From: Bacteroidales bacterium
GTDB lineage: Bacteria > Bacteroidota > Bacteroidia > Bacteroidales > WCHB1-69
NCBI GenBank assembly: GCA_017554325.1
Contig: JAFZIP010000005.1
Location: 128,211-192,210 of the forward strand
Length of the DNA: 64,000 nt
Direction of reading: 5' to 3'
Shown: piece after piece, positions 623 through 14,311 of the stretch
Numbering within the stretch: the first letter of the stretch is position 1
Layout: each line of letters opens with the position of its first letter
Made by a program: the position numbers and the translations under genes
Notes under the pieces: model-generated
Told to the model about the DNA's origin: nothing
Seen by the model: the letters and a program-made list of their open reading frames with translations, nothing else
Databases searched by the model: none

Positions 623-1813
623 CTATAGGATTTCTGCTTTCTTAAATGCTTTTGTAATTTTGTCGATAGCCTCATCCACCTGCTCGTAGGTGTGCGTGGC
701 CATCAGGGCGAAACGGATCAGCACATCGTTTTCGGGCACAGCGGGCGCGATGACTGGCGTGACGAAAACACCGTCTTCCAACAGGCGAGAGCAGAGCCAA
801 AATGCCTTCTCCGAGTTGCGTACAAACAGCGGAATGATAGGCGTTTCGCTGCGGCCCGTGTCGAAACCTCTCTCCTTGAACTGATTGCGAGCGTAGTTGC
901 TCACGTCCCAAAGGTGCTGGATGCGCTCCGGCTCCTCCAACATGATATCGATGGCCTTGTTGACTGCCGCCACATTGGAAGGCGGCATGCTGGCGCTGAA
1001 AATCAGCGACCGGGCATGGTGCTTCAAAAAGTTGATAGTGTCGGCATCAGAAGCGATGAAACCGCCCAACGAACCGAACGACTTGGAGAAAGTGCCCATG
1101 ATAAGACCGACTTTGTCGGTCAAACCGAAATGATTGGCTGTACCTCTGCCCTGATGTCCCAAAACGCCCAAAGAATGGGCATCGTCAAGCATAATCTCGG
1201 CGTCATACTTTTCAGCCAAAGCCACCATTTCAGGTAGCGGGGCAATATCTCCCTCCATGGAAAAGACACCGTCAGCCACAATCAACTTGACGGATTCGGG
1301 TTCGCATTGTTGCAAACATTTTTCCAGGCTATCCATGTCGTTATGGTCGTATTTCAGCACCTTGCCAAACGACAAGCGGCTTCCCTCAATAATGGAGGCG
1401 TGATCAAGACGGTCGAGCAGCAGATAGTCGCTACGGCCACACAGTGCGGAAACCACGCCCAAGTTCACCTGGAAGCCCGTGCTGAAGCACAGCGCATCAT
1501 CCTTGCCCACCAATTGGGCGAGCTTATTTTCCAATTCCACATGGATATCCAATGTGCCGTTAAGGAAACGCGAACCAGAGCAACTGGTACCGTATTTGTC
1601 GATGGCGGCCTTGGCGGCCTCTTTCAGACGCGGGTCGTTCGAAAGACCCAGGTAGCTGTTCGAGCTGAACATCAGCACATCCTTGCCTTCAATCTTCACC
1701 ACCGTACTTTGCTCTGTCTCTATCGCTTTATAATATGGGTAAATCCCTTTTTCTTTTGCTATTTGCGGCGCTCTGTATTGCGCACATTTGTTTCTTAAAA
1801 TCTGTGTTCTCAT
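623..1813 (-). CDS. spt: PLP-dependent alpha-oxoamine synthase, serine palmitoyltransferase-like
   Basis: 396-aa ORF with GSRFLNGT, DDAHS and the PLP-lysine motif GTFSKSFG. The SRxLNGT signature looks like bacterial SPT rather than BioF or Kbl. Confidence 0.75.
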   Translation of the reverse strand: MRTQILRNKCAQYRAPQIAKEKGIYPYYKAIETEQSTVVKIEGKDVLMFSSNSYLGLSNDPRLKEAAKAAIDKYGTSCSGSRFLNGTLDIHVELENKLAQLVGKDDALCFSTGFQVNLGVVSALCGRSDYLLLDRLDHASIIEGSRLSFGKVLKYDHNDMDSLEKCLQQCEPESVKLIVADGVFSMEGDIAPLPEMVALAEKYDAEIMLDDAHSLGVLGHQGRGTANHFGLTDKVGLIMGTFSKSFGSLGGFIASDADTINFLKHHARSLIFSASMPPSNVAAVNKAIDIMLEEPERIQHLWDVSNYARNQFKERGFDTGRSETPIIPLFVRNSEKAFWLCSRLLEDGVFVTPVIAPAVPENDVLIRFALMATHTYEQVDEAIDKITKAFKKAEIL

Positions 1814-2051
1814 CTATTATTAATAAAAAATCCACAAATTTGTCCAGCAAGCTGGGCATGAGCAAAAACAATAATATGTATAAGGACTTGCATATTCAAC
1901 TGACAATCAATTCATTTTTTCAATATCCAACAACAACCTAGCATATCCTTACACGAAGCGGCAAAGATACACAAATATTTGGTACTTTTGCCGCCGTTTT
2001 AAAAATGAGCTTTTTACTCGAAACTATCGCATTTTAACATAAAGATTTGAT

Positions 2052-4472
2052 ATGGTTTTTGTAAGAATTTACCGATTTTTCACCCAACACAAGATATTTT
2101 TATATTCACTTTTGATTATAAGCAGTGTCGTCTTTGCCTTCTTCGCAGCAAAGGCACACTTCGAGGAGGATTTAATCAAGCTTCTGCCGAAGTCTGACGA
2201 ATCGGAGTGTGGAGTGGTATTCGGCAATATCAAGGTCAAAGACAAACTCTTCATGCAGATGACGGGTGCTGAGCCCGAGGTGATGGTAGGCTACGTGGAT
2301 GAACTGATGGACTCCATACTCACCAATGACGAAGGCATCGCCAACACGCTCTACCGTTTGGAACCCGACATGGCGCTCAACGCGCTCGATTACGCCATGA
2401 TGCACGTGCCCTCGTTCGTGGACTCGACCCTGTACTCCCGTTTTGACTCGGCCATCGCACACGCCGACGAAACGATGGCGCACAACTATGAAATGATCAT
2501 GAACGACGAGACCGGCATGGCTAGCGAGTTGGTCTCCACCGATCCGCTATGCCTGCGCGAATGCCTGATGCCCGACCTCTCCAGTGGCATGGGCTTCACC
2601 CTCATCGACGGCCATCTGTTCTGCGCCGACAGCACCGTGGCACTGATCTTCATTTCCCCTGATTTCCAGACGTTTGATTCACAAGCCAGTCATAAACTCG
2701 TCAGCCATCTCAACCATTGCATAGAGCAATTCCATCAGGCGCATCCGGATGTGGAGGTGCTCATGCATGGCGGCGCGGTGGAGGCGGTCGGCAACGCCAG
2801 CACCATGAAGCGCGACATCTTCATCACCATCGGAATCTCCTTGGTGCTGATTCTCCTCTATTTGTGCATCAGTTTCAAGAGCTACAATATTATATGGCAG
2901 AATGTGCTGCCGATTGTTTACGGTACGATCTTCGCGTTGGCCTGCATGTATTGGATCAAAGGTGGAATGTCGTTGATGGCTTTGGGCGTGGGGGCCGTGA
3001 TTTTGGGCGTTGCGCTCAGCTATTGCTTACATATAATTGTGCATCAACGCTTCGTTGGCGATGTGGAGCAGATGTTGAAAGATGAGGCCATTCCCGTTTG
3101 CCTCGGCTGCCTCACCACCATCGGTGCATTCCTCGGTCTGATGTTTACGCAGAGCGAATTATTGAAAGACTTCGGTCTGTTCGCCACCTTCGCGCTCCTC
3201 GGCAGCACCTTCTTCACATTGATCTTCCTGCCTCACTTCCTTAATGTAAAAGATGCCAAACACAGCAAAAGGGCATTCAAGTTGATAGACAAAATCAACA
3301 ATTATCCTTACGACCGCAATCCATTTATTATCATTACATTGTGCATTGTTATCCTGATAGGATTCATCTTTTCCGGCAAGGTGCAGTTTGACAATGACTT
3401 GAAGCATATCGGTTTCGAGAGTGAGGCTTTCAAAAAATCTCAAAAATTGTATGCCGAGAAAAACGACCATGGCGGTTTGCAAAAGTATTATGCCGTAACT
3501 GCTTCCGATCTGGATGAAGCTTTGGATGCCAATGTAGTGATTTCCAATACCCTGGATTCCTTGTATAAGGCAGGTGATCTGTTCACTTACACGCCGGTCG
3601 TGTCCATGTTGTTCCAGTCTCAGGCGGAGCAGGAGCGTCGCATTGCCGCATGGCAGCGTTATTGGACTCCTGAGAAGGTGGCGCAAGCCATGGCATCCGT
3701 GAAAGCTGCCGCAGTGAAAAACGACATCTCACCCGACATCTTCATTCCGTTCCAAGCGATGGTGGAAGCGGAGTATGAACCCGGGAACCTTTATGAGTCC
3801 GGCGTTGTCCCCGAAGGCCTGCTCTGTAACTTCATTGAGGAGACAGATGGCAAGTATTTGATTTTCAATGCCACACAGTTATCCAAAGATAAAGCGGGCG
3901 AAGTCAGCGACATCATAGCATCCAAACCGCATGCCGTGGTGGTGGATCCTTTATACTACACAGGTGGCATGATTTCCCTGATTCACAAGGACTTCAATCT
4001 GGCATTGCTCATCTCGTCCATTTTTGTGTTTGTTGTGCTTCTTTTCTCATTCAGAAATATTTTGATCTCAATTCTTGCCTTTATGCCGATGTTCATCAGC
4101 TGGTACGTGGTTCAGGGCTGGATGGCCATCCTCGGTTTGTCATTCAACATGATCAACATTGTGATCTCCACCTTCATATTCGGTATTGGCGTGGACTACA
4201 GTATTTTTGTCATGAAGGGATTGATTGAGAAGCAGACTCTGGAGAGCAGCAAATTGCTGGAGTACCACAAGGTAGCCATCTTCTTCTCGGCCCTGGTGTT
4301 GATTATCGTGATGGGGGCGATGTTGTTCGCCAAGCACCCTACCATCGTCTCAATCGGCGAGTGCGCATTAATCGGCATGATCTCCACCATCCTGATCACC
4401 TACACGTTACAACCGTTAATCTTCCGCTGGCTGATGAAGATTCCGTTCATGAAACGGAGAATGGAGAAATAA
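2052..4472 (+). CDS. MMPL/RND-superfamily predicted (lipid) exporter
   Basis: 806 aa with an N-terminal TM and two multi-TM bundles (about aa 255-400 and 650-800), each preceded by a large soluble domain. This is the typical MMPL/COG4258 layout. Confidence 0.7.
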   Translation: MVFVRIYRFFTQHKIFLYSLLIISSVVFAFFAAKAHFEEDLIKLLPKSDESECGVVFGNIKVKDKLFMQMTGAEPEVMVGYVDELMDSILTNDEGIANTLYRLEPDMALNALDYAMMHVPSFVDSTLYSRFDSAIAHADETMAHNYEMIMNDETGMASELVSTDPLCLRECLMPDLSSGMGFTLIDGHLFCADSTVALIFISPDFQTFDSQASHKLVSHLNHCIEQFHQAHPDVEVLMHGGAVEAVGNASTMKRDIFITIGISLVLILLYLCISFKSYNIIWQNVLPIVYGTIFALACMYWIKGGMSLMALGVGAVILGVALSYCLHIIVHQRFVGDVEQMLKDEAIPVCLGCLTTIGAFLGLMFTQSELLKDFGLFATFALLGSTFFTLIFLPHFLNVKDAKHSKRAFKLIDKINNYPYDRNPFIIITLCIVILIGFIFSGKVQFDNDLKHIGFESEAFKKSQKLYAEKNDHGGLQKYYAVTASDLDEALDANVVISNTLDSLYKAGDLFTYTPVVSMLFQSQAEQERRIAAWQRYWTPEKVAQAMASVKAAAVKNDISPDIFIPFQAMVEAEYEPGNLYESGVVPEGLLCNFIEETDGKYLIFNATQLSKDKAGEVSDIIASKPHAVVVDPLYYTGGMISLIHKDFNLALLISSIFVFVVLLFSFRNILISILAFMPMFISWYVVQGWMAILGLSFNMINIVISTFIFGIGVDYSIFVMKGLIEKQTLESSKLLEYHKVAIFFSALVLIIVMGAMLFAKHPTIVSIGECALIGMISTILITYTLQPLIFRWLMKIPFMKRRMEK

Positions 4473-4521
4473 AAATTATACTTTTGCCGCCCATTTTTCT
4501 CAAGACAACTATATTATAAGA

Positions 4522-5052
4522 ATGAAAAAATTACTGACCATTATCCTTGCAGTGTTGACCTTTGCTGCTTCAGCGCAGAAGGTTGAGACCCATTTCACAG
4601 AATCTAAATTCATCAAAGCATCCGGCAAGACCCTCGAAGCCGAAGGCACGTTCAAGCTCTTCTCCGCCGACAAAATGGAGATGCGCTATACCAAGCCCGC
4701 TGGCGACTATTTCATCATCGATGGCAGGACGGTGAACATGAACATGCGCGGTAAGAAGTCGGTGGTGGACACCGACAAAAATGCCGCCATCCGCTCGCAG
4801 CGCAACACCTTGATGAACTGCATCAACGGCAATTGGAAACAGGCTGCCACCGACAACAACGCCGAGAGTTCCGTGGTGGAGAAGGGCGCCAACAAGATCG
4901 TGACATTGAGTGCCAAGAAAGCGGCGCCGAGGGGCTATTCCAAGATCATCATCACCTATCGGAAGTCCGACAACCTGCCCACGGAGATGGTGCTTGAGGA
5001 GTTTAACGGCACGGTGACCACCATCAAATTGTCCAACATCATAAAAAAATAG
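4522..5052 (+). CDS. Small secreted LolA-fold carrier-like protein
   Basis: 176 aa with signal peptide MKKLLTIILAVLTFAASAQ. It has a beta-rich LolA-like pattern and lies 49 nt downstream of the exporter. Confidence 0.55.
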   Translation: MKKLLTIILAVLTFAASAQKVETHFTESKFIKASGKTLEAEGTFKLFSADKMEMRYTKPAGDYFIIDGRTVNMNMRGKKSVVDTDKNAAIRSQRNTLMNCINGNWKQAATDNNAESSVVEKGANKIVTLSAKKAAPRGYSKIIITYRKSDNLPTEMVLEEFNGTVTTIKLSNIIKK

Positions 5053-5126
5053 CATCCGGCGAGGTTGTTGATAACCCCTGTTGAAAATATTTTTTCTGCC
5101 TGATACCGAGCATATTATAAAAAATG

Positions 5127-5134
5127 TATATTTG
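5127..5134 (+). promoter_or_regulatory. Candidate Bacteroidota -7 promoter box (TATATTTG) for the rplC unit
   Basis: Matches TAnnTTTG and lies about 120 nt upstream of the rplC ATG. The leader contains small hairpins, for example TTGCTT-ATTCA-AAGCAA at 5170-5186. Confidence 0.4.
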
Positions 5135-5254
5135 CAGGCTCGAATTTTAAACCGCGAAGTGTTGATAAGTTGCTTATTCAAAGCAATTTATCACAAATGA
5201 ATGGCTTAACTTCGATGCGTAAAAGACACTAAATTTTTTATAAATCAATTTAAA

Positions 5255-5884
5255 ATGTCAGGATTAATAGGAAAAAAAATTGGTATGACTAGCATCTACG
5301 ATGCCTCCGGCAAGATCGTGCCGTGCACAGTGATAGAGGCTGGTCCTTGCGTGGTTACGCAAGTCAAGACCGTCGAGAAAGACGGCTACAGTGCAATCCA
5401 ATTGGGTTACGACGAAAAGAAAGAGAAAAACACGACGAAGCCTTTGAAGGGCCACTTCGCCAAGGCAGGCACCACGCCGAAGAAAATCTTACACGAGTTC
5501 ACCCGTTTCGAGGAAGGACACAAGAAGAATTTCGGTGAGGTTCTGGACGTAACCGTCTTCGAGGAAGGCGAGTTCGTGGACGTGAGCGGAACTTCCAAGG
5601 GTAAAGGTTTCCAGGGCGTTGTGAAACGTCACGGATTCGGCGGTGTAGGCGATGCCACACACGGTCAGCACAACCGTCTGAGAGCTCCCGGTTCAATGGG
5701 TGCTTCCTCCTACCCTTCCCGCGTGTTCAAGGGCATGCGCATGGCCGGCCAAATGGGTAACGCAAAGGTCAAGGTCATCAACATTCAGATTCTGAAGATT
5801 GTCAAGGAAAAGAATTTATTAGTAGTTAAAGGTTCTGTACCCGGAGCCAACGGATCATATTTAATTATTGAAAGATGGAGCTAA
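5255..5884 (+). CDS. rplC: 50S ribosomal protein L3
   Basis: 209 aa with conserved blocks [36 protein letters not shown] and [11 protein letters not shown]. Confidence 0.97.
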
Positions 5885-6504
5885 CAGTATATAAAATAGA
5901 CGGCAGTTCAACTGCAAGAACGGTTACCCTGAATGATCAGATCTTCAATGTGGAACCCAACGATCATGCCATCTGGCTTGACGTGAAACAATATTTGGCC
6001 AACCAAAGACAAGGCACACACGACACGCTGGAACGCTCCACCGTCTCCGGTAGCACCCGCAAGCTGAAACGCCAGAAAGGTACTGGCGGCGCACGTGCCG
6101 GTAGCATCAAGAGCCCCACGATCCGTGGCGGTGCAACCGTTTTCGGACCTCACCCGAGAGACTACTCTTTCAAGCTGAACAAGAAAGTGAAGAGACTCGC
6201 CCGTTTCTCCGCCTTCACCTACAAGCAGAAAGATGGTAAAATCACGGTGGTGGAAGACTTCAACTTCGAGGCTCCCAAGACCAAAGCTTACAGCGAGATG
6301 CTGAAAAACCTCAAGCTCGACGGTCAGAAGACACTTCTTATCACGGCTGAAAGCAACAAGAACGTGTTCCTGTCCGCACGCAACCTGCAACGCACCAACG
6401 TGATGTGCGCCCAGAACGCCAACACCTACCACGTGTTGAACGCCGGCCATATCATCCTCTGCGAGAGCAGCCTCAAAGAGCTGGAGAAAATGTTAGGCGA
6501 ATAA
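5875..6504 (+). CDS. rplD: 50S ribosomal protein L4
   Basis: 209 aa with [13 protein letters not shown] and other L4 blocks. The ATG overlaps the rplC stop by 10 nt. Confidence 0.95.
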
Positions 6505-6529
6505 TTATAAACCTTAAAAAAGAAAAACA

Positions 6530-6820
6530 ATGAGTATCATTATAAAACCCATCATCAGCGAAAAAATGACGCAGACGGCTGAGAAATACAACCGCTACGG
6601 TTTCATGGTGACCCGCGAGGCCACCAAGCCTGAAATCAAACGCGAAATAGAGGCCGTTTATGGTGTTAAAGTAGTCCGCGTAAATACCTTGATCCAACGC
6701 GGTAAAGTCACGAACCGCAATACTAAGGCTGGCGTCATCACGGGTCAGAAGAACAACTTCAAAAAGGCCTACGTGTTCGTGGACAAGGATCAAAAAATCG
6801 ATTTTTATAGTAATATTTAA
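6530..6820 (+). CDS. rplW: 50S ribosomal protein L23
   Basis: 96 aa with the L23 pattern IIKPIISEK...AYVF, in the canonical position between L4 and L2. Confidence 0.93.
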
Positions 6821-6825
6821 AAGAG

Positions 6826-7650
6826 ATGGCACTTAAAAAGTACAAACCAGTAACGCCGGGTCAGCGCTTCAAAGTGATCAGCGCATTTGATGACATTACC
6901 ACCAACACACCCGAAAAGAGTTTGTTGAGTCCGATTCACCGGACAGGCGGAAGAAACAACAGTGGTAAAATGACGGTACGGTACCGCGGTGGCGGTCACA
7001 AAAGGATGTACCGTATGATTGATTTTAAAAGAGAAAAAGATGGCGTTCCCGCTATCGTGAAAACGATTGAATACGATCCGAACCGTTCGGCCCGTATCGC
7101 CCTCGTTTATTACGCTGACGGTGAGAAACGCTACATCGTGGCTCCTCACGGTATCAAGGTGGGCCAGGAAATCCTCAGCGGCGCAGGCGTGTCCCCCGAT
7201 TTGGGCAACTGCCTCCCTGTTGGCGAAATTCCTTTCGGTTCCATCATCCACAACATCGAGATGCGTCCGGGCCAGGGTGCCAAAATCGCCCGTAGTGCCG
7301 GTTCTTACGCACAACTCATGTCCCGCGAAGGCAAATACGCCATCATCAGAATGCCTTCTGGTGAAACCCGTATGATCCTCTGCGCCTGCAAGGCCACCAT
7401 CGGCATCGTGTCCAATGGCGACCACAGCCTCGAGGTTTCCGGTAAGGCCGGTAGATCCCGTTGGTTGGGCAGACGTCCTCGCAACCGTGGTGTGGTTATG
7501 AATCCTGTCGATCACCCGATGGGTGGTGGTGAAGGTCGTGCATCCGGTGGACACCCGCGCTCTCGCAAGGGTATTCCTGCTAAGGGTTATAAGACCAGAC
7601 ACCCGAAGAAGAATTCCAGCCAGTATATCATCGAAAGAAGAAAGAAATAA
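6826..7650 (+). CDS. rplB: 50S ribosomal protein L2
   Basis: 274 aa with [15 protein letters not shown] and [23 protein letters not shown]. Confidence 0.97.
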
Positions 7651-7667
7651 TCTAAAAGCTTAATATT

Positions 7668-7946
7668 ATGAGTCGTTCATTAAAAAAAGGTCCGTATATA
7701 CATTACAAATTGGAACAACGTGTGATCGCCGCTCAGGAATCTGGCAAGAAGACCACCATCAAGACCTGGTCGCGCGCCTCTATGATTTCCCCTGACTTCG
7801 TAGGCCTTACCATCGCTGTTCACAATGGCAACAAATTCATCCCCGTGTATGTTACCGAAAACATGGTCGGCCACAAACTCGGCGAATTTGCTCCCACCCG
7901 TATTTTCCGCGGACACGCAGGCCAAAAAGACAAAGGTTCCAAATAG
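7668..7946 (+). CDS. rpsS: 30S ribosomal protein S19
   Basis: 92 aa with SLKKGPY and [28 protein letters not shown]. Confidence 0.97.
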
Positions 7947-8003
7947 TTTTCTGTTTCGGAAACCCGCTTCCTTCCTTCGATATTCATTTATCTCACTATA
8001 CCA

Positions 8004-8036
8004 AAATCCCTTTTCAAACGGAAAGGGATTTTTTAT
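8004..8036 (+). terminator. Intrinsic terminator directly after rpsS
   Basis: AAATCCCTTT (8004-8013) pairs with AAAGGGATTT (8022-8031) around an 8-nt loop, followed by a T-run. Confidence 0.8.
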
Positions 8037-8108
8037 TTCAACAAACTGACAATACTCTCCCTAAACACACAAATATTCCTTATTTTTGCACCCTAAAAAT
8101 CACCTCTG

Positions 8109-9530
8109 ATGCTGTTCAATTCGCTGGAATTCGCCATTTTTCTACCCATAGTATTCCTGCTGTACTGGTTCGTGTTCAACCGGAACGTGAAATGGCAGAA
8201 TCTATTTGTCGTGGTGGCTTCCTATATCTTTTACGGATGGTGGGACTGGCGATTCCTCTTTCTTATCGCCTTCACATCCCTCTGCAGCTGGGGAAGCGGC
8301 CTGCTGATTGACAAATATCGACAAAGTCGTACCGCTACCGTAATCCATATTTTAAACATCGTATTGAACTTGGGTGTTCTGGCCCTTTTCAAGTACTACG
8401 ATTTCTTTGCCGACTCTTTTGCAAGACTGTTTCTTCATGGGAACAGCGACAAACTGCTGCTGCACCTCATCCTACCTGTCGGGATCAGTTTCTACACCTT
8501 CCAGGCGCTGAGCTACAGCATTGACGTTTACCGGAAAAAAATGGAGCCCACCCGCGACATCATCCAGTTCTTCGCCTTCGTGAGTTTCTTCCCACAACTT
8601 GTGGCCGGTCCTATCGAGCGCGCCACCAACCTGCTCCCCCAGTTTGAGAAACCCAGAACCTTCGACTATGCGCAAGGTGTGGATGGCATGAGACAGATTC
8701 TATGGGGCCTTTTCAAAAAAGTGGCAGTGGCAGACACTTGCGCAGTATATGTAGATCAGGTCTTCGGAAACTACCTGAATCAGAACGGAACAACCCTCAT
8801 CATTGCCGCCATTCTGTTCGCCATCCAAATATACGGAGACTTCTCCGGCTACTCCGACATCGCCATCGGCACCGCCAAGCTATTCGGAATCCGATTGATG
8901 CGCAACTTCCGGAACCCCTATTTCAGCCGCGACATCGCTGAGTTCTGGCGCAGGTGGCACATTTCGCTGACCACCTGGTTTCGCGACTACGTCTATATCC
9001 CCCTCGGCGGGAGCCGTGTGTCAAAAGGCAAGATTATCCGTAACACCTTCATCATCTTCTTGTTAAGCGGCTTCTGGCATGGTGCCAACTGGACATTCAT
9101 CGCTTGGGGCGCCTACCACGGCATCCTGTTCCTGCCGTTGATTCTGACCGGGAAAAACCGGAAATATCTGAATGAAGTGGCCGAAAACAAAATGCTGCCC
9201 TCCCTGAAAGAAACCGGACAAATCATACTCACCTTCATGCTGGTCACCATCGGTTGGATCATTTTCCGTTCCGACTCCATTTCACAAGCATGGCAGTATA
9301 TTACACTTATTCCTCATTTAGGTATCCCATATACTGAAGGACTGTTAACCACCGCACTGCTAGTAATTGGAATGTTCATCGTGGAATGGCTGCAACGCAC
9401 ACGAGAACATGGTCTTGACCTACAAATTCTTAATTCTCACATACTTAAATTCTCTATTTACTACATTATTATCATTATCCTCTTCCTTGTCCAAAAAGGG
9501 GCCGAATCGTTTATCTATTTCCAGTTTTAA
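8109..9530 (+). CDS. MBOAT-family membrane O-acyltransferase (AlgI/DltB-like)
   Basis: 473 aa and polytopic. It carries the conserved His region FWRRWHISLTTWFRDYVYIPLGGSR and SGFWHGANW. Confidence 0.85.
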   Translation: MLFNSLEFAIFLPIVFLLYWFVFNRNVKWQNLFVVVASYIFYGWWDWRFLFLIAFTSLCSWGSGLLIDKYRQSRTATVIHILNIVLNLGVLALFKYYDFFADSFARLFLHGNSDKLLLHLILPVGISFYTFQALSYSIDVYRKKMEPTRDIIQFFAFVSFFPQLVAGPIERATNLLPQFEKPRTFDYAQGVDGMRQILWGLFKKVAVADTCAVYVDQVFGNYLNQNGTTLIIAAILFAIQIYGDFSGYSDIAIGTAKLFGIRLMRNFRNPYFSRDIAEFWRRWHISLTTWFRDYVYIPLGGSRVSKGKIIRNTFIIFLLSGFWHGANWTFIAWGAYHGILFLPLILTGKNRKYLNEVAENKMLPSLKETGQIILTFMLVTIGWIIFRSDSISQAWQYITLIPHLGIPYTEGLLTTALLVIGMFIVEWLQRTREHGLDLQILNSHILKFSIYYIIIIILFLVQKGAESFIYFQF

Positions 9531-14031: not shown

Positions 14032-14104
14032 GCCGATATAGCTCAGTTGGTAGAGCAGCTGATTTGTAATCAGCCGGTCGTGGGTTCAAGTCCCTCTATC
14101 GGCT
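14032..14104 (+). tRNA. tRNA-Thr (anticodon TGT)
   Basis: Cloverleaf read by eye: acceptor GCCGATA/TATCGGC, D-arm GCTC-AGTTGGTA-GAGC, anticodon arm GCTGA-TTTGTAA-TCAGC, T-loop TTCAAGT. Confidence 0.9.
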
Positions 14105-14126
14105 CTAAGGCACAAAGAAATATGAT

Positions 14127-14208
14127 GGGAGAGTTCCAGAGCGGTCAAATGGGACAGACTGTAAATCTGCTGGCTAAGCCTTCGGAGGTTCGAATCCTTC
14201 CTCTCCCA
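14127..14208 (+). tRNA. tRNA-Tyr (anticodon GTA), long variable arm
   Basis: Acceptor GGGAGAG/CTCTCCC, anticodon loop CTGTAAA, T-arm GGAGG-TTCGAAT-CCTTC, class II variable arm. Confidence 0.9.
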
Positions 14209-14215
14209 CTCAATT

Positions 14216-14288
14216 GCGGAAGTAGCTCATTTGGCAGAGCGACAGCCTTCCAAGCTGTAGGTGGCGGGTTCGAGCCCCGTTTTCCGCT
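14216..14288 (+). tRNA. tRNA-Gly (anticodon TCC)
   Basis: Acceptor GCGGAAG/TTTCCGC, anticodon arm CAGC-CTTCCAA-GCTG, T-loop TTCGAGC. Confidence 0.88.
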
Positions 14289-14311
14289 CATCTTACAACA
14301 TTTACGCATAG

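Follow-up and report, generated by a model that had tools for sequence, protein, structure and literature searches.

The gene order rpsJ-rplC-rplD-rplW-rplB-rpsS-rplV-rpsC-rplP-rpmC-rpsQ is among the most conserved in bacteria, and its conservation is often attributed to a requirement that the genes be co-transcribed and the subunits made in balance. In Escherichia coli, the leader of this S10 operon responds to the protein L4. Alternative ribosomal protein paralogs, such as the zinc-independent C- paralogs of L31, L33, L36, and S14, are organized differently, with two diverged copies in a genome. Lineage-specific breaks in the S10, spc, and alpha clusters were reportedly noted by Coenye and Vandamme in a comparative survey of 2005 in FEMS Microbiol Lett. 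Here we describe the five genes rplC-rplD-rplW-rplB-rpsS at positions 5255–7946 of the plus strand of a 64,000-nucleotide stretch of the genome of a Bacteroidales bacterium (contig JAFZIP010000005.1 of assembly GCA_017554325.1), hereafter called the window. They are very probably the ordinary, single-copy genes of uL3, uL4, uL23, uL2, and uS19, split off as an autonomous operon.

The unit shares with the E. coli S10 operon the same five genes, their order, tight packing, and a leader longer than 100 nucleotides. However, it has no rpsJ at the front and no rplV-rpsC-rplP-rpmC-rpsQ at the end, its leader precedes rplC instead of rpsJ and has no detectable similarity to Rfam families, and its predicted promoter appears to belong to the -7/-33 class of Bacteroidetes. 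The encoded proteins are orthologous to those of the canonical Bacteroidales str-S10-spc string (rpsL-rpsG-fusA-rpsJ-rplC...rplE...), represented here by L007, Segatella copri L050, and Alistipes L077, and uL2 and uS19 are 83% and 90% identical to their counterparts from L007, respectively. In the window, this string is interrupted both before rplC and after rpsS, and the five genes have gained a putative promoter, leader, and terminator. The arrangement resembles what is said of the breaks in the S10, spc, and alpha clusters, in that a conserved cluster is split into separately transcribed pieces. A search of full-text literature returned no account of this five-gene piece or of its stepwise origin in Bacteroidales, although one of the queries was swamped by the chromatography sense of RPLC. 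The unit is also similar to the alternative paralogs, because it places ribosomal protein genes outside the main cluster and under their own apparent regulation, but no second copy was seen for it, and four of its five proteins evolve without a change in rate.

The genes were identified by whole-protein scores above the curated cut-offs of NCBIfam equivalog families. The first gene, rplC (5255–5884, plus strand, as are the other four), encodes the 209-residue uL3 and scored 272.8 bits against TIGR03625, the cut-off of which is 142.9. It is followed by rplD (5875–6504; uL4, 209 residues; TIGR03953, 235.4 bits, cut-off 130.1), rplW (6530–6820; uL23, 96 residues; NF004363, 98.2 bits, cut-off 81; Pfam L23, 89.8 bits), and rplB (6826–7650; uL2, 274 residues; TIGR01171, 399.7 bits, cut-off 174.5). 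The unit ends with rpsS (7668–7946; uS19, 92 residues; TIGR01050, 139.3 bits, cut-off 89.35). All five proteins passed their cut-offs, with wide margins for uL3, uL4, uL2, and uS19 and a narrower one for uL23, and the five reading frames also matched the Pfam domains corresponding to L3, L4, L23, L2, and S19. The genes are adjacent and in the canonical order; rplC and rplD overlap by ten nucleotides, and the remaining spacers are 25, 5, and 17 nucleotides long. These scores and coordinates agree with a first-pass annotation of the DNA, which had recognized the five genes, their canonical order, tight packing, and the ten-nucleotide overlap. The same overlap is present in the canonical relative L007. 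The start regions of the five genes are A-rich and do not contain Shine-Dalgarno sequences. The GC content of the genes equals that of their neighbours, and their codon bias is marginally stronger (pooled effective number of codons of 46 versus 50).

Break points of the gene string among relatives

Approximately 220 related loci were gathered by comparing uL2 with one representative genome per species and uL4 with public metagenomes, and by look-ups of exact proteins, and all of them were screened for neighbouring ribosomal protein genes. The loci in which the five proteins have a mean identity of at least 79% to those of the window are all without rplV after rpsS; those in the same table with a mean identity of 73% or less all have it. 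In a neighbour-joining tree of the five concatenated proteins, the loci broken after rpsS form one clade with ordinary branch lengths, which is nested among canonical Bacteroidales lineages. Judging by the names of the records, the clade consists of uncultured gut Bacteroidales from ruminant-gut and termite-gut samples. The species of the window is absent from the GTDB species representatives listed, among which the best uL2 match is 86%.

The members of the clade retain different lengths of the string in front of rplC. Locus L144 contains rpsL-rpsG-fusA-rpsJ joined to rplC through rpsS, followed by the break, L141 contains fusA-rpsJ joined to the same five genes, and L006 and L143 retain only rpsJ, an arrangement that the short contigs L142 and L145 also fit. 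The unit is reduced to rplC through rpsS in the window, L105, L137, L139, L008, the L113/L117 group, the L107 group, L005, L217, and L218. Since the break after rpsS is present in the entire clade and some of its members still have rpsJ or fusA in front, the break after rpsS is ancestral, and the break before rplC is later and belongs to the subgroup of the window. We propose that the str-S10-spc gene string was broken between rpsS and rplV in the ancestor of the clade, and that a further break between rpsJ and rplC followed in the window's subgroup.

The genes that flank the unit vary between species, even close ones, and the promoter motif and terminator are kept. The locus L137, the uL3 of which is 100% identical to that of the window, has a different upstream neighbourhood, and L139, with a 99% identical uL3, has different genes on both sides. 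The picture is that of a module extending from a predicted promoter to a predicted terminator, which would stay intact while the surrounding genome reshuffles. The changing flanks around a unit that keeps its promoter and terminator, seen even between such close relatives, would also be explained if the five genes were a mobile module or a horizontally acquired cassette that displaced the native genes as xenologs. However, in the tree the clade falls within Bacteroidales, with canonical lineages as its sisters, and the members with rpsJ or fusA still joined to the unit show that the break occurred stepwise and in place. The GC content is that of the host genome and the codon bias is close to it, and no direct or inverted repeats flank the unit. 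In the adjacent genes, the only conspicuous resemblance to an integrase or transposase was that of a XerC/D-like tyrosine recombinase gene located about 2 kb upstream in L117. Acquisition of the unit from elsewhere is therefore extremely improbable, and a break of the native string in place is the reading that we retain.

A layout of this kind could also be produced artificially by a contig that is chimeric at about 5.1 kb, 8.0 kb, or both, and the source of the window is metagenome-type data, in which chimeras occur; nothing specific was found to indicate one. The identical uL2 protein is present on five contigs, and the four places displayed belong to four separate metagenome assemblies from the European Nucleotide Archive, with contigs of 7–456 kb. 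The unit has the same neighbours on either side in all four of these assemblies, neither junction is marked by a shift in GC content, and the junction of rpsS with the downstream gene of an MBOAT acyltransferase recurs in the relatives L105 and L137. The repetition of the same arrangement in independent metagenome assemblies argues that it is not a chimera, and we consider the probability of such an artefact negligible. The continuity of the assembly at both junctions, which the first-pass annotation had marked as a point to check, was thus borne out. Annotators and genome-quality tools that expect an intact cluster should not count the layout as a misassembly.

Several sequences among the gathered loci deviate from the common pattern. 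The rpsS gene appears frameshifted in L217 (5826–6120), within a homopolymeric A-run, and in L218 (5843–6120), and was missed or split by the gene caller. The frameshifts are probably assembly errors rather than signs of a pseudogene; the assembly of L218 has low coverage. Two matches from the uL2 search, P0001 and P0003, with 368 and 361 residues, owe their length to about 90 residues that are duplicated in tandem within the protein. They are not fusion proteins and most probably stem from short contigs that were misassembled. A mosaic or recombinant origin of the L137 operon was also rejected, since the dip in identity falls in the C-terminal half of rplD, which is variable, and is seen in all comparisons. 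The S10 protein of the clade (L006, 8020–8334; proteins P0121–P0239) has 103–106 residues, compared with 101 residues in canonical relatives. A short insertion (..VQAVKDDKVVLVG..) could be used as a marker of the clade.

Predicted promoter, leader, and terminator

The predicted promoter region (5095–5134, plus strand) is composed of an A-run and a Bacteroidetes-type -7 box, TATATTTG, at 5127–5134, which is located 120 nucleotides upstream of the rplC ATG. The box fits TAnnTTTG, the -7 promoter element of Bacteroidetes known from the Bacteroides promoter literature. Its core, GTATATTTGC, is positioned after an A-run 128–144 nucleotides before the rplC ATG in every clade lineage examined (about 12). 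In the alignment of the sequences upstream of rplC, the A-run and GTATATTTGC form one strictly conserved block, beyond which the sequence is unrelated between lineages. At the -33 position, for which the consensus is TTTG, most relatives have a TTG-like or degenerate element about 15–17 nucleotides upstream, as read by eye, and the window has CGAG. In the window, 26 copies of the motif TAnnTTTGC were counted where 8.4 would be expected, an approximately threefold excess, and the copies that were checked are situated just upstream of genes, typically 20–60 nucleotides before start codons. The distance of 120 nucleotides between the box and rplC therefore gives the unit an unusually long leader. 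We infer that a promoter of the Bacteroidetes sigma-A type drives the unit and that transcription starts near 5141. One assembly of the same strain, L004, contains TATATTTT at 3530–3540 in place of TATATTTG; the difference reflects either true variation in the promoter or an error of sequencing.

The five genes could be the only copies in the genome and still not be autonomous, if they were co-transcribed mainly with the upstream genes of an MMPL transporter and a LolA-like protein and TATATTTG were incidental. Both upstream genes are on the same strand as the unit in the window strain, and a terminator was not detected between 5052 and 5127. In the relatives, however, the upstream genes differ or face the opposite way and the -7 box stays, and in L001, from the same species, the same promoter is preceded by an extra gene and a terminator-like hairpin. 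We regard dependence on the upstream genes as very unlikely, and initiation at a promoter belonging to the unit remains our preferred reading. The stretch 7552–8300 of L001 (compare 5053–5126 of the window) contains the extra gene, which encodes a cytidylate-kinase-like protein of 214 residues and, as an insertion, separates the LolA-like gene from the rplC promoter. It is followed by the terminator-like hairpin with a T-run, read by eye, directly before that promoter.

The 5' leader of about 114 nucleotides (5141–5254, plus strand), counted from the putative start site, contains a long imperfect hairpin followed by an A/U-rich stretch without a Shine-Dalgarno sequence. When folded alone, the leader of the window forms one long imperfect hairpin at 5142–5213 with a z-score of -2.9 and an apical stem of 12 base pairs at 5164–5192. 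A common structure of 26 pairs was predicted from the alignment of five leaders from close relatives, and 12 of the 26 pairs are changed on both sides. In this structure 81.5% of the cells are paired, compared with 68.8% in shuffled alignments, and slid controls are clearly lower. The coding sequence of L001 is 100% identical to that of the window over 2.7 kb, and the 150 nucleotides of the promoter and the 5' half of the leader are only 65% identical. The apical stem of the leader is preserved in L001 using different bases.

A covariance model, R1, built from the five close leaders recovers only those leaders and copies from the same species, not the distant members of the clade, and RNAalifold found no consensus pairs in a MAFFT alignment of eight leaders. 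The z-scores of single leader sequences from 12 lineages range from -4.2 to +1.6, and four of the 12 have no excess folding stability. The leader has no convincing match in Rfam, with a best E-value of 0.3, and a search of the whole window at curated thresholds returned three tRNAs only. Taken at the level of sequence, the comparisons are only suggestive of a functional leader hairpin. The leader might stabilize the mRNA as a 5' hairpin, or one of the encoded proteins might use it for feedback.

The predicted intrinsic terminator (8003–8040, plus strand) is formed by a 13-base-pair stem with a four-nucleotide loop at 8003–8032 and a T-rich tail, TTATTT. The hairpin has a folding energy of about -15 kcal/mol and a z-score of -3.7, and none of 200 shuffled sequences folds as well. 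A strong hairpin with a stem of 9–17 base pairs and a T-run is present 21–65 nucleotides past the rpsS stop codon in 15 of 17 clade loci. The sequences of the hairpins differ in each lineage and are mutually unrelated.

In the mechanism that we propose, transcription of the unit would start at the promoter with the -7 box at 5127–5134, near 5141, pass through the leader of about 114 nucleotides, which would usually fold into one long hairpin, and stop at the intrinsic terminator at 8003–8040. The translation of the five tightly packed genes is probably coupled, given the ten-nucleotide overlap and the spacers of 5–25 nucleotides. The promoter and terminator are presumably used in the cell, and the leader may have a regulatory role. 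The control elements had been listed in the first-pass annotation. The -7 box at 5127–5134 and the leader of about 120 nucleotides with hairpins hold, and the motif of the box is conserved clade-wide. The small hairpin placed at 5170–5186 is present as the tip of the 12-base-pair stem inside the larger fold, and the strong terminator described as a ten-base-pair stem at 8004–8031 was recovered with 13 pairs and a T-run.

Copy number and the complementary rpsJ fragment

A fragment complementary to the unit was identified using the clade-type S10 of L006 (103–104 residues) as a query. The genes of two abundant clusters of clade-type S10 proteins are arranged as rpsL-rpsG-fusA-rpsJ, followed by a terminator and then by unrelated genes on the other strand. 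Such a fragment, ending after rpsJ, corresponds exactly to what a unit led by rplC lacks at its front. In one sister species, the uL2 of which is 85% identical to that of the window, three assemblies contain both the rpsJ fragment and the five-gene unit, and the coverage of the two agrees in each of them. The coverages of the rpsJ fragment and the unit are 9.8x and 8.6x in ERZ809224, 18.1x and 19.1x in ERZ23880225, and 21.0 and 20.0 in ERZ19651133, respectively. The remainder of the old cluster would be located elsewhere in the genome, with rpsL-rpsG-fusA-rpsJ forming a terminated unit of its own, as seen in the sister species.

The first-pass annotation had offered two explanations of the locus: the S10 operon had been fragmented into a self-contained unit, or the five genes were a second, paralogous set of uL3, uL4, uL23, uL2, and uS19, present beside a canonical S10 operon and serving an alternative or antibiotic-insensitive ribosome. 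The detachment of the unit from rpsJ and rplV, its own control signals, the unusual divergence of uL23 in the clade, and the indirect determination of single-copy status are compatible with a paralogous set. However, the split is clade-wide and vertically inherited, the rpsJ fragment of the sister species ends without rplC and has equal coverage in the same assemblies, and each of the 80 best uL2 loci listed comes from a different species-representative genome. Faster drift is the expectation for a redundant or specialized paralog, and it was not seen in uL3, uL4, uL2, and uS19. Their mean identities to one outgroup set are 74, 61, 78, and 82% in the split clade and 73, 59, 78, and 83% in its canonical sisters, so that paralogy is unsupported.

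The uL2 protein of the window matches, end to end, the uL2 of the solved Bacteroidota ribosomes 9i5t (E-value 1e-133) and 7jil (6e-129). Its motif DHPMGGGEG contains a methionine at the position of His229 of E. coli. The same residue is present in 9i5t, 7jil, and the canonical relatives, and is therefore a trait of the phylum and not a feature peculiar to the copy in the window; the possibility that the window encodes a special uL2 was rejected on this basis. A second, paralogous set is highly improbable, and the idea of a drug-insensitive ribosome encoded at the locus can be removed. Of the two original explanations, fragmentation of the S10 operon is the one that stands, upheld by the clade-wide break, the conserved -7 box and terminator, and the complementary rpsJ fragment. 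The absence of a visible second copy, the unaccelerated rates of four proteins, the full-length match of uL2, and the matching GC content speak against the other. Sister genomes share the same split, one of two findings that the first-pass annotation itself had named together as telling against paralogy, the other being a genome with only this copy.

Several observations weigh against the five genes being an autonomous, single-copy operon. The rpsJ fragment is tied to the unit in a sister species and not in that of the window, and the samples displayed for the S10 cluster P0161 have no overlap with those of the window. A fragment led by rplV was not located with the S3 of L007, the nearest canonical relative, as a query, as the two clusters of matches examined belong to canonical lineages. 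Compared with the gathered loci, none of the 120 matches listed in this search has its closest match in the nearest sisters of the clade, and no third fragment is present within 10 kb of any locus examined. The single-copy status is indirect, since the result without duplicates refers to the best 80 uL2 loci. The uL23 proteins (rplW at 6530–6820 and its orthologs) have evolved faster in the whole split clade, with 51% identity to the same outgroup set, compared with 64% in canonical sisters. Promoter, start site, and terminator were all predicted from the sequence. Because no terminator was found in the window strain between the stop codon of the LolA-like gene at 5052 and the promoter, some read-through from upstream is possible. 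The balance nevertheless favours the split-off operon, and we infer that its genes are single-copy in the exact species of the window as well.

Other rplC-led units and the flanking genes

Units led by rplC are not unique to the clade of the window, because they are also present in Rikenellaceae-like and Prevotella-like lineages. A monophyletic Rikenellaceae-like clade (L033, L035, L038, L041, L047, L057, and L069) contains a unit of seven genes, rplC-rplD-rplW-rplB-rpsS-rplV-rpsC, without rpsJ before it and without rplP after it. The L069 sequence, OY762808.1, is a complete chromosome of 2.6 Mb that includes this seven-gene unit from rplC to rpsC. In most of the loci, TACATTTGCAGCCCGCAAAAATGCGGG, which comprises a -7 box and a hairpin at the start site, is located 63–70 nucleotides before the ATG, and the short contig L067 shares the promoter. 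The seven-gene unit represents a fragmentation pattern independent of that in the window's clade.

The Prevotella-like loci L152, L160, L166, L167, L175, L185, L190, L196, L198, and L066 have their own rplC -7 box, TACCTTTG (TAACTTTG in L066), and a conserved rplC leader of about 190 nucleotides, located about 190–210 nucleotides upstream of rplC, for example at 1415–1622 of L166. Within the leader, TATTGCGCTGGC...GCTAaCAATAC forms a hairpin, and CTTTTTAaGTG pairs over a long range with CACTTAAAAAG. In its structure, 92% of the cells are paired and four pairs are changed on both sides. A search of five of the loci against Rfam 15 gave no match with an E-value of up to 0.1. The sequence is a candidate for an undescribed ribosomal protein leader.

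The hairpin of the window's clade and the Prevotella-like leader may have a common rationale. Once the operon was broken, the new units led by rplC could have evolved leader RNAs of their own. At these so far undescribed sites, uL4 or another of the encoded proteins would exert feedback in place of the ancestral control. We put this forward tentatively and consider it rather unlikely. The whole clade of the window lives with a conserved string cut at two places, the intermediates survive, and each piece has its own predicted promoter and terminator. The clade thus provides a natural series for asking how the balance of ribosomal proteins persists after uncoupling and whether new leader RNAs take control.

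The unit of the window is flanked by genes unrelated to the ribosome. The LolA-like gene (4522–5052) is located just upstream on the same strand and matches Pfam LolA with 38.1 bits (cut-off 23.6). It is preceded on that strand by the MMPL transporter gene (2052–4472) and, on the minus strand, by a gene of serine palmitoyltransferase (623–1813; NF047600, 655 bits, cut-off 640). The MBOAT acyltransferase gene (8109–9530) downstream of the unit matches Pfam MBOAT with 107.3 bits. A -7 box, TATTTTTG, at 8081–8088 on the plus strand, 20 nucleotides before the MBOAT gene, marks the boundary and suggests that this gene is a separate transcription unit. The genes rpsL, rpsG, fusA, rpsJ, rplV, rpsC, rplP, rpsQ, rplN, rplX, and rplE were not found in the 64 kb by tblastn at E-values of up to 1 using S12, S7, EF-G, S10, L22, S3, L16, S17, L14, L24, and L5 of a canonical relative as queries (rpmC was not among them), and tuf was likewise not detected. 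A LolA-fold gene thus stands upstream in place of rpsJ and an MBOAT gene downstream in place of rplV-rpsC-rplP, just as first described.

The LolA-like gene is part of a larger lipid gene cluster that extends over 623–5052 of the window and 1–4988 of L001 and L002. The cluster encodes an AMP-binding enzyme, a carrier protein, an acyltransferase, a short-chain dehydrogenase, serine palmitoyltransferase, an MMPL/RND transporter, and the LolA-like protein, and looks like a locus for the synthesis and export of a sphingolipid or sulfonolipid. Farther downstream, at 14032–14289, the window contains the tRNA genes tRNA-Thr(tgt), tRNA-Tyr, and tRNA-Gly(tcc), followed by a Mur-ligase-family gene. These are the first three genes of the conserved string thrU-tyrU-glyT-thrT-tufB, in which tRNA-Thr(ggt) and tuf are replaced by the Mur-ligase-family gene. 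In the relative L006, tRNA-Thr(ggt)-tuf-tRNA-Trp adjoins rpsJ. The truncated tRNA cluster, the window without tuf, and the position of tuf next to rpsJ in L006 make it appear that a second conserved gene string is broken in the clade.

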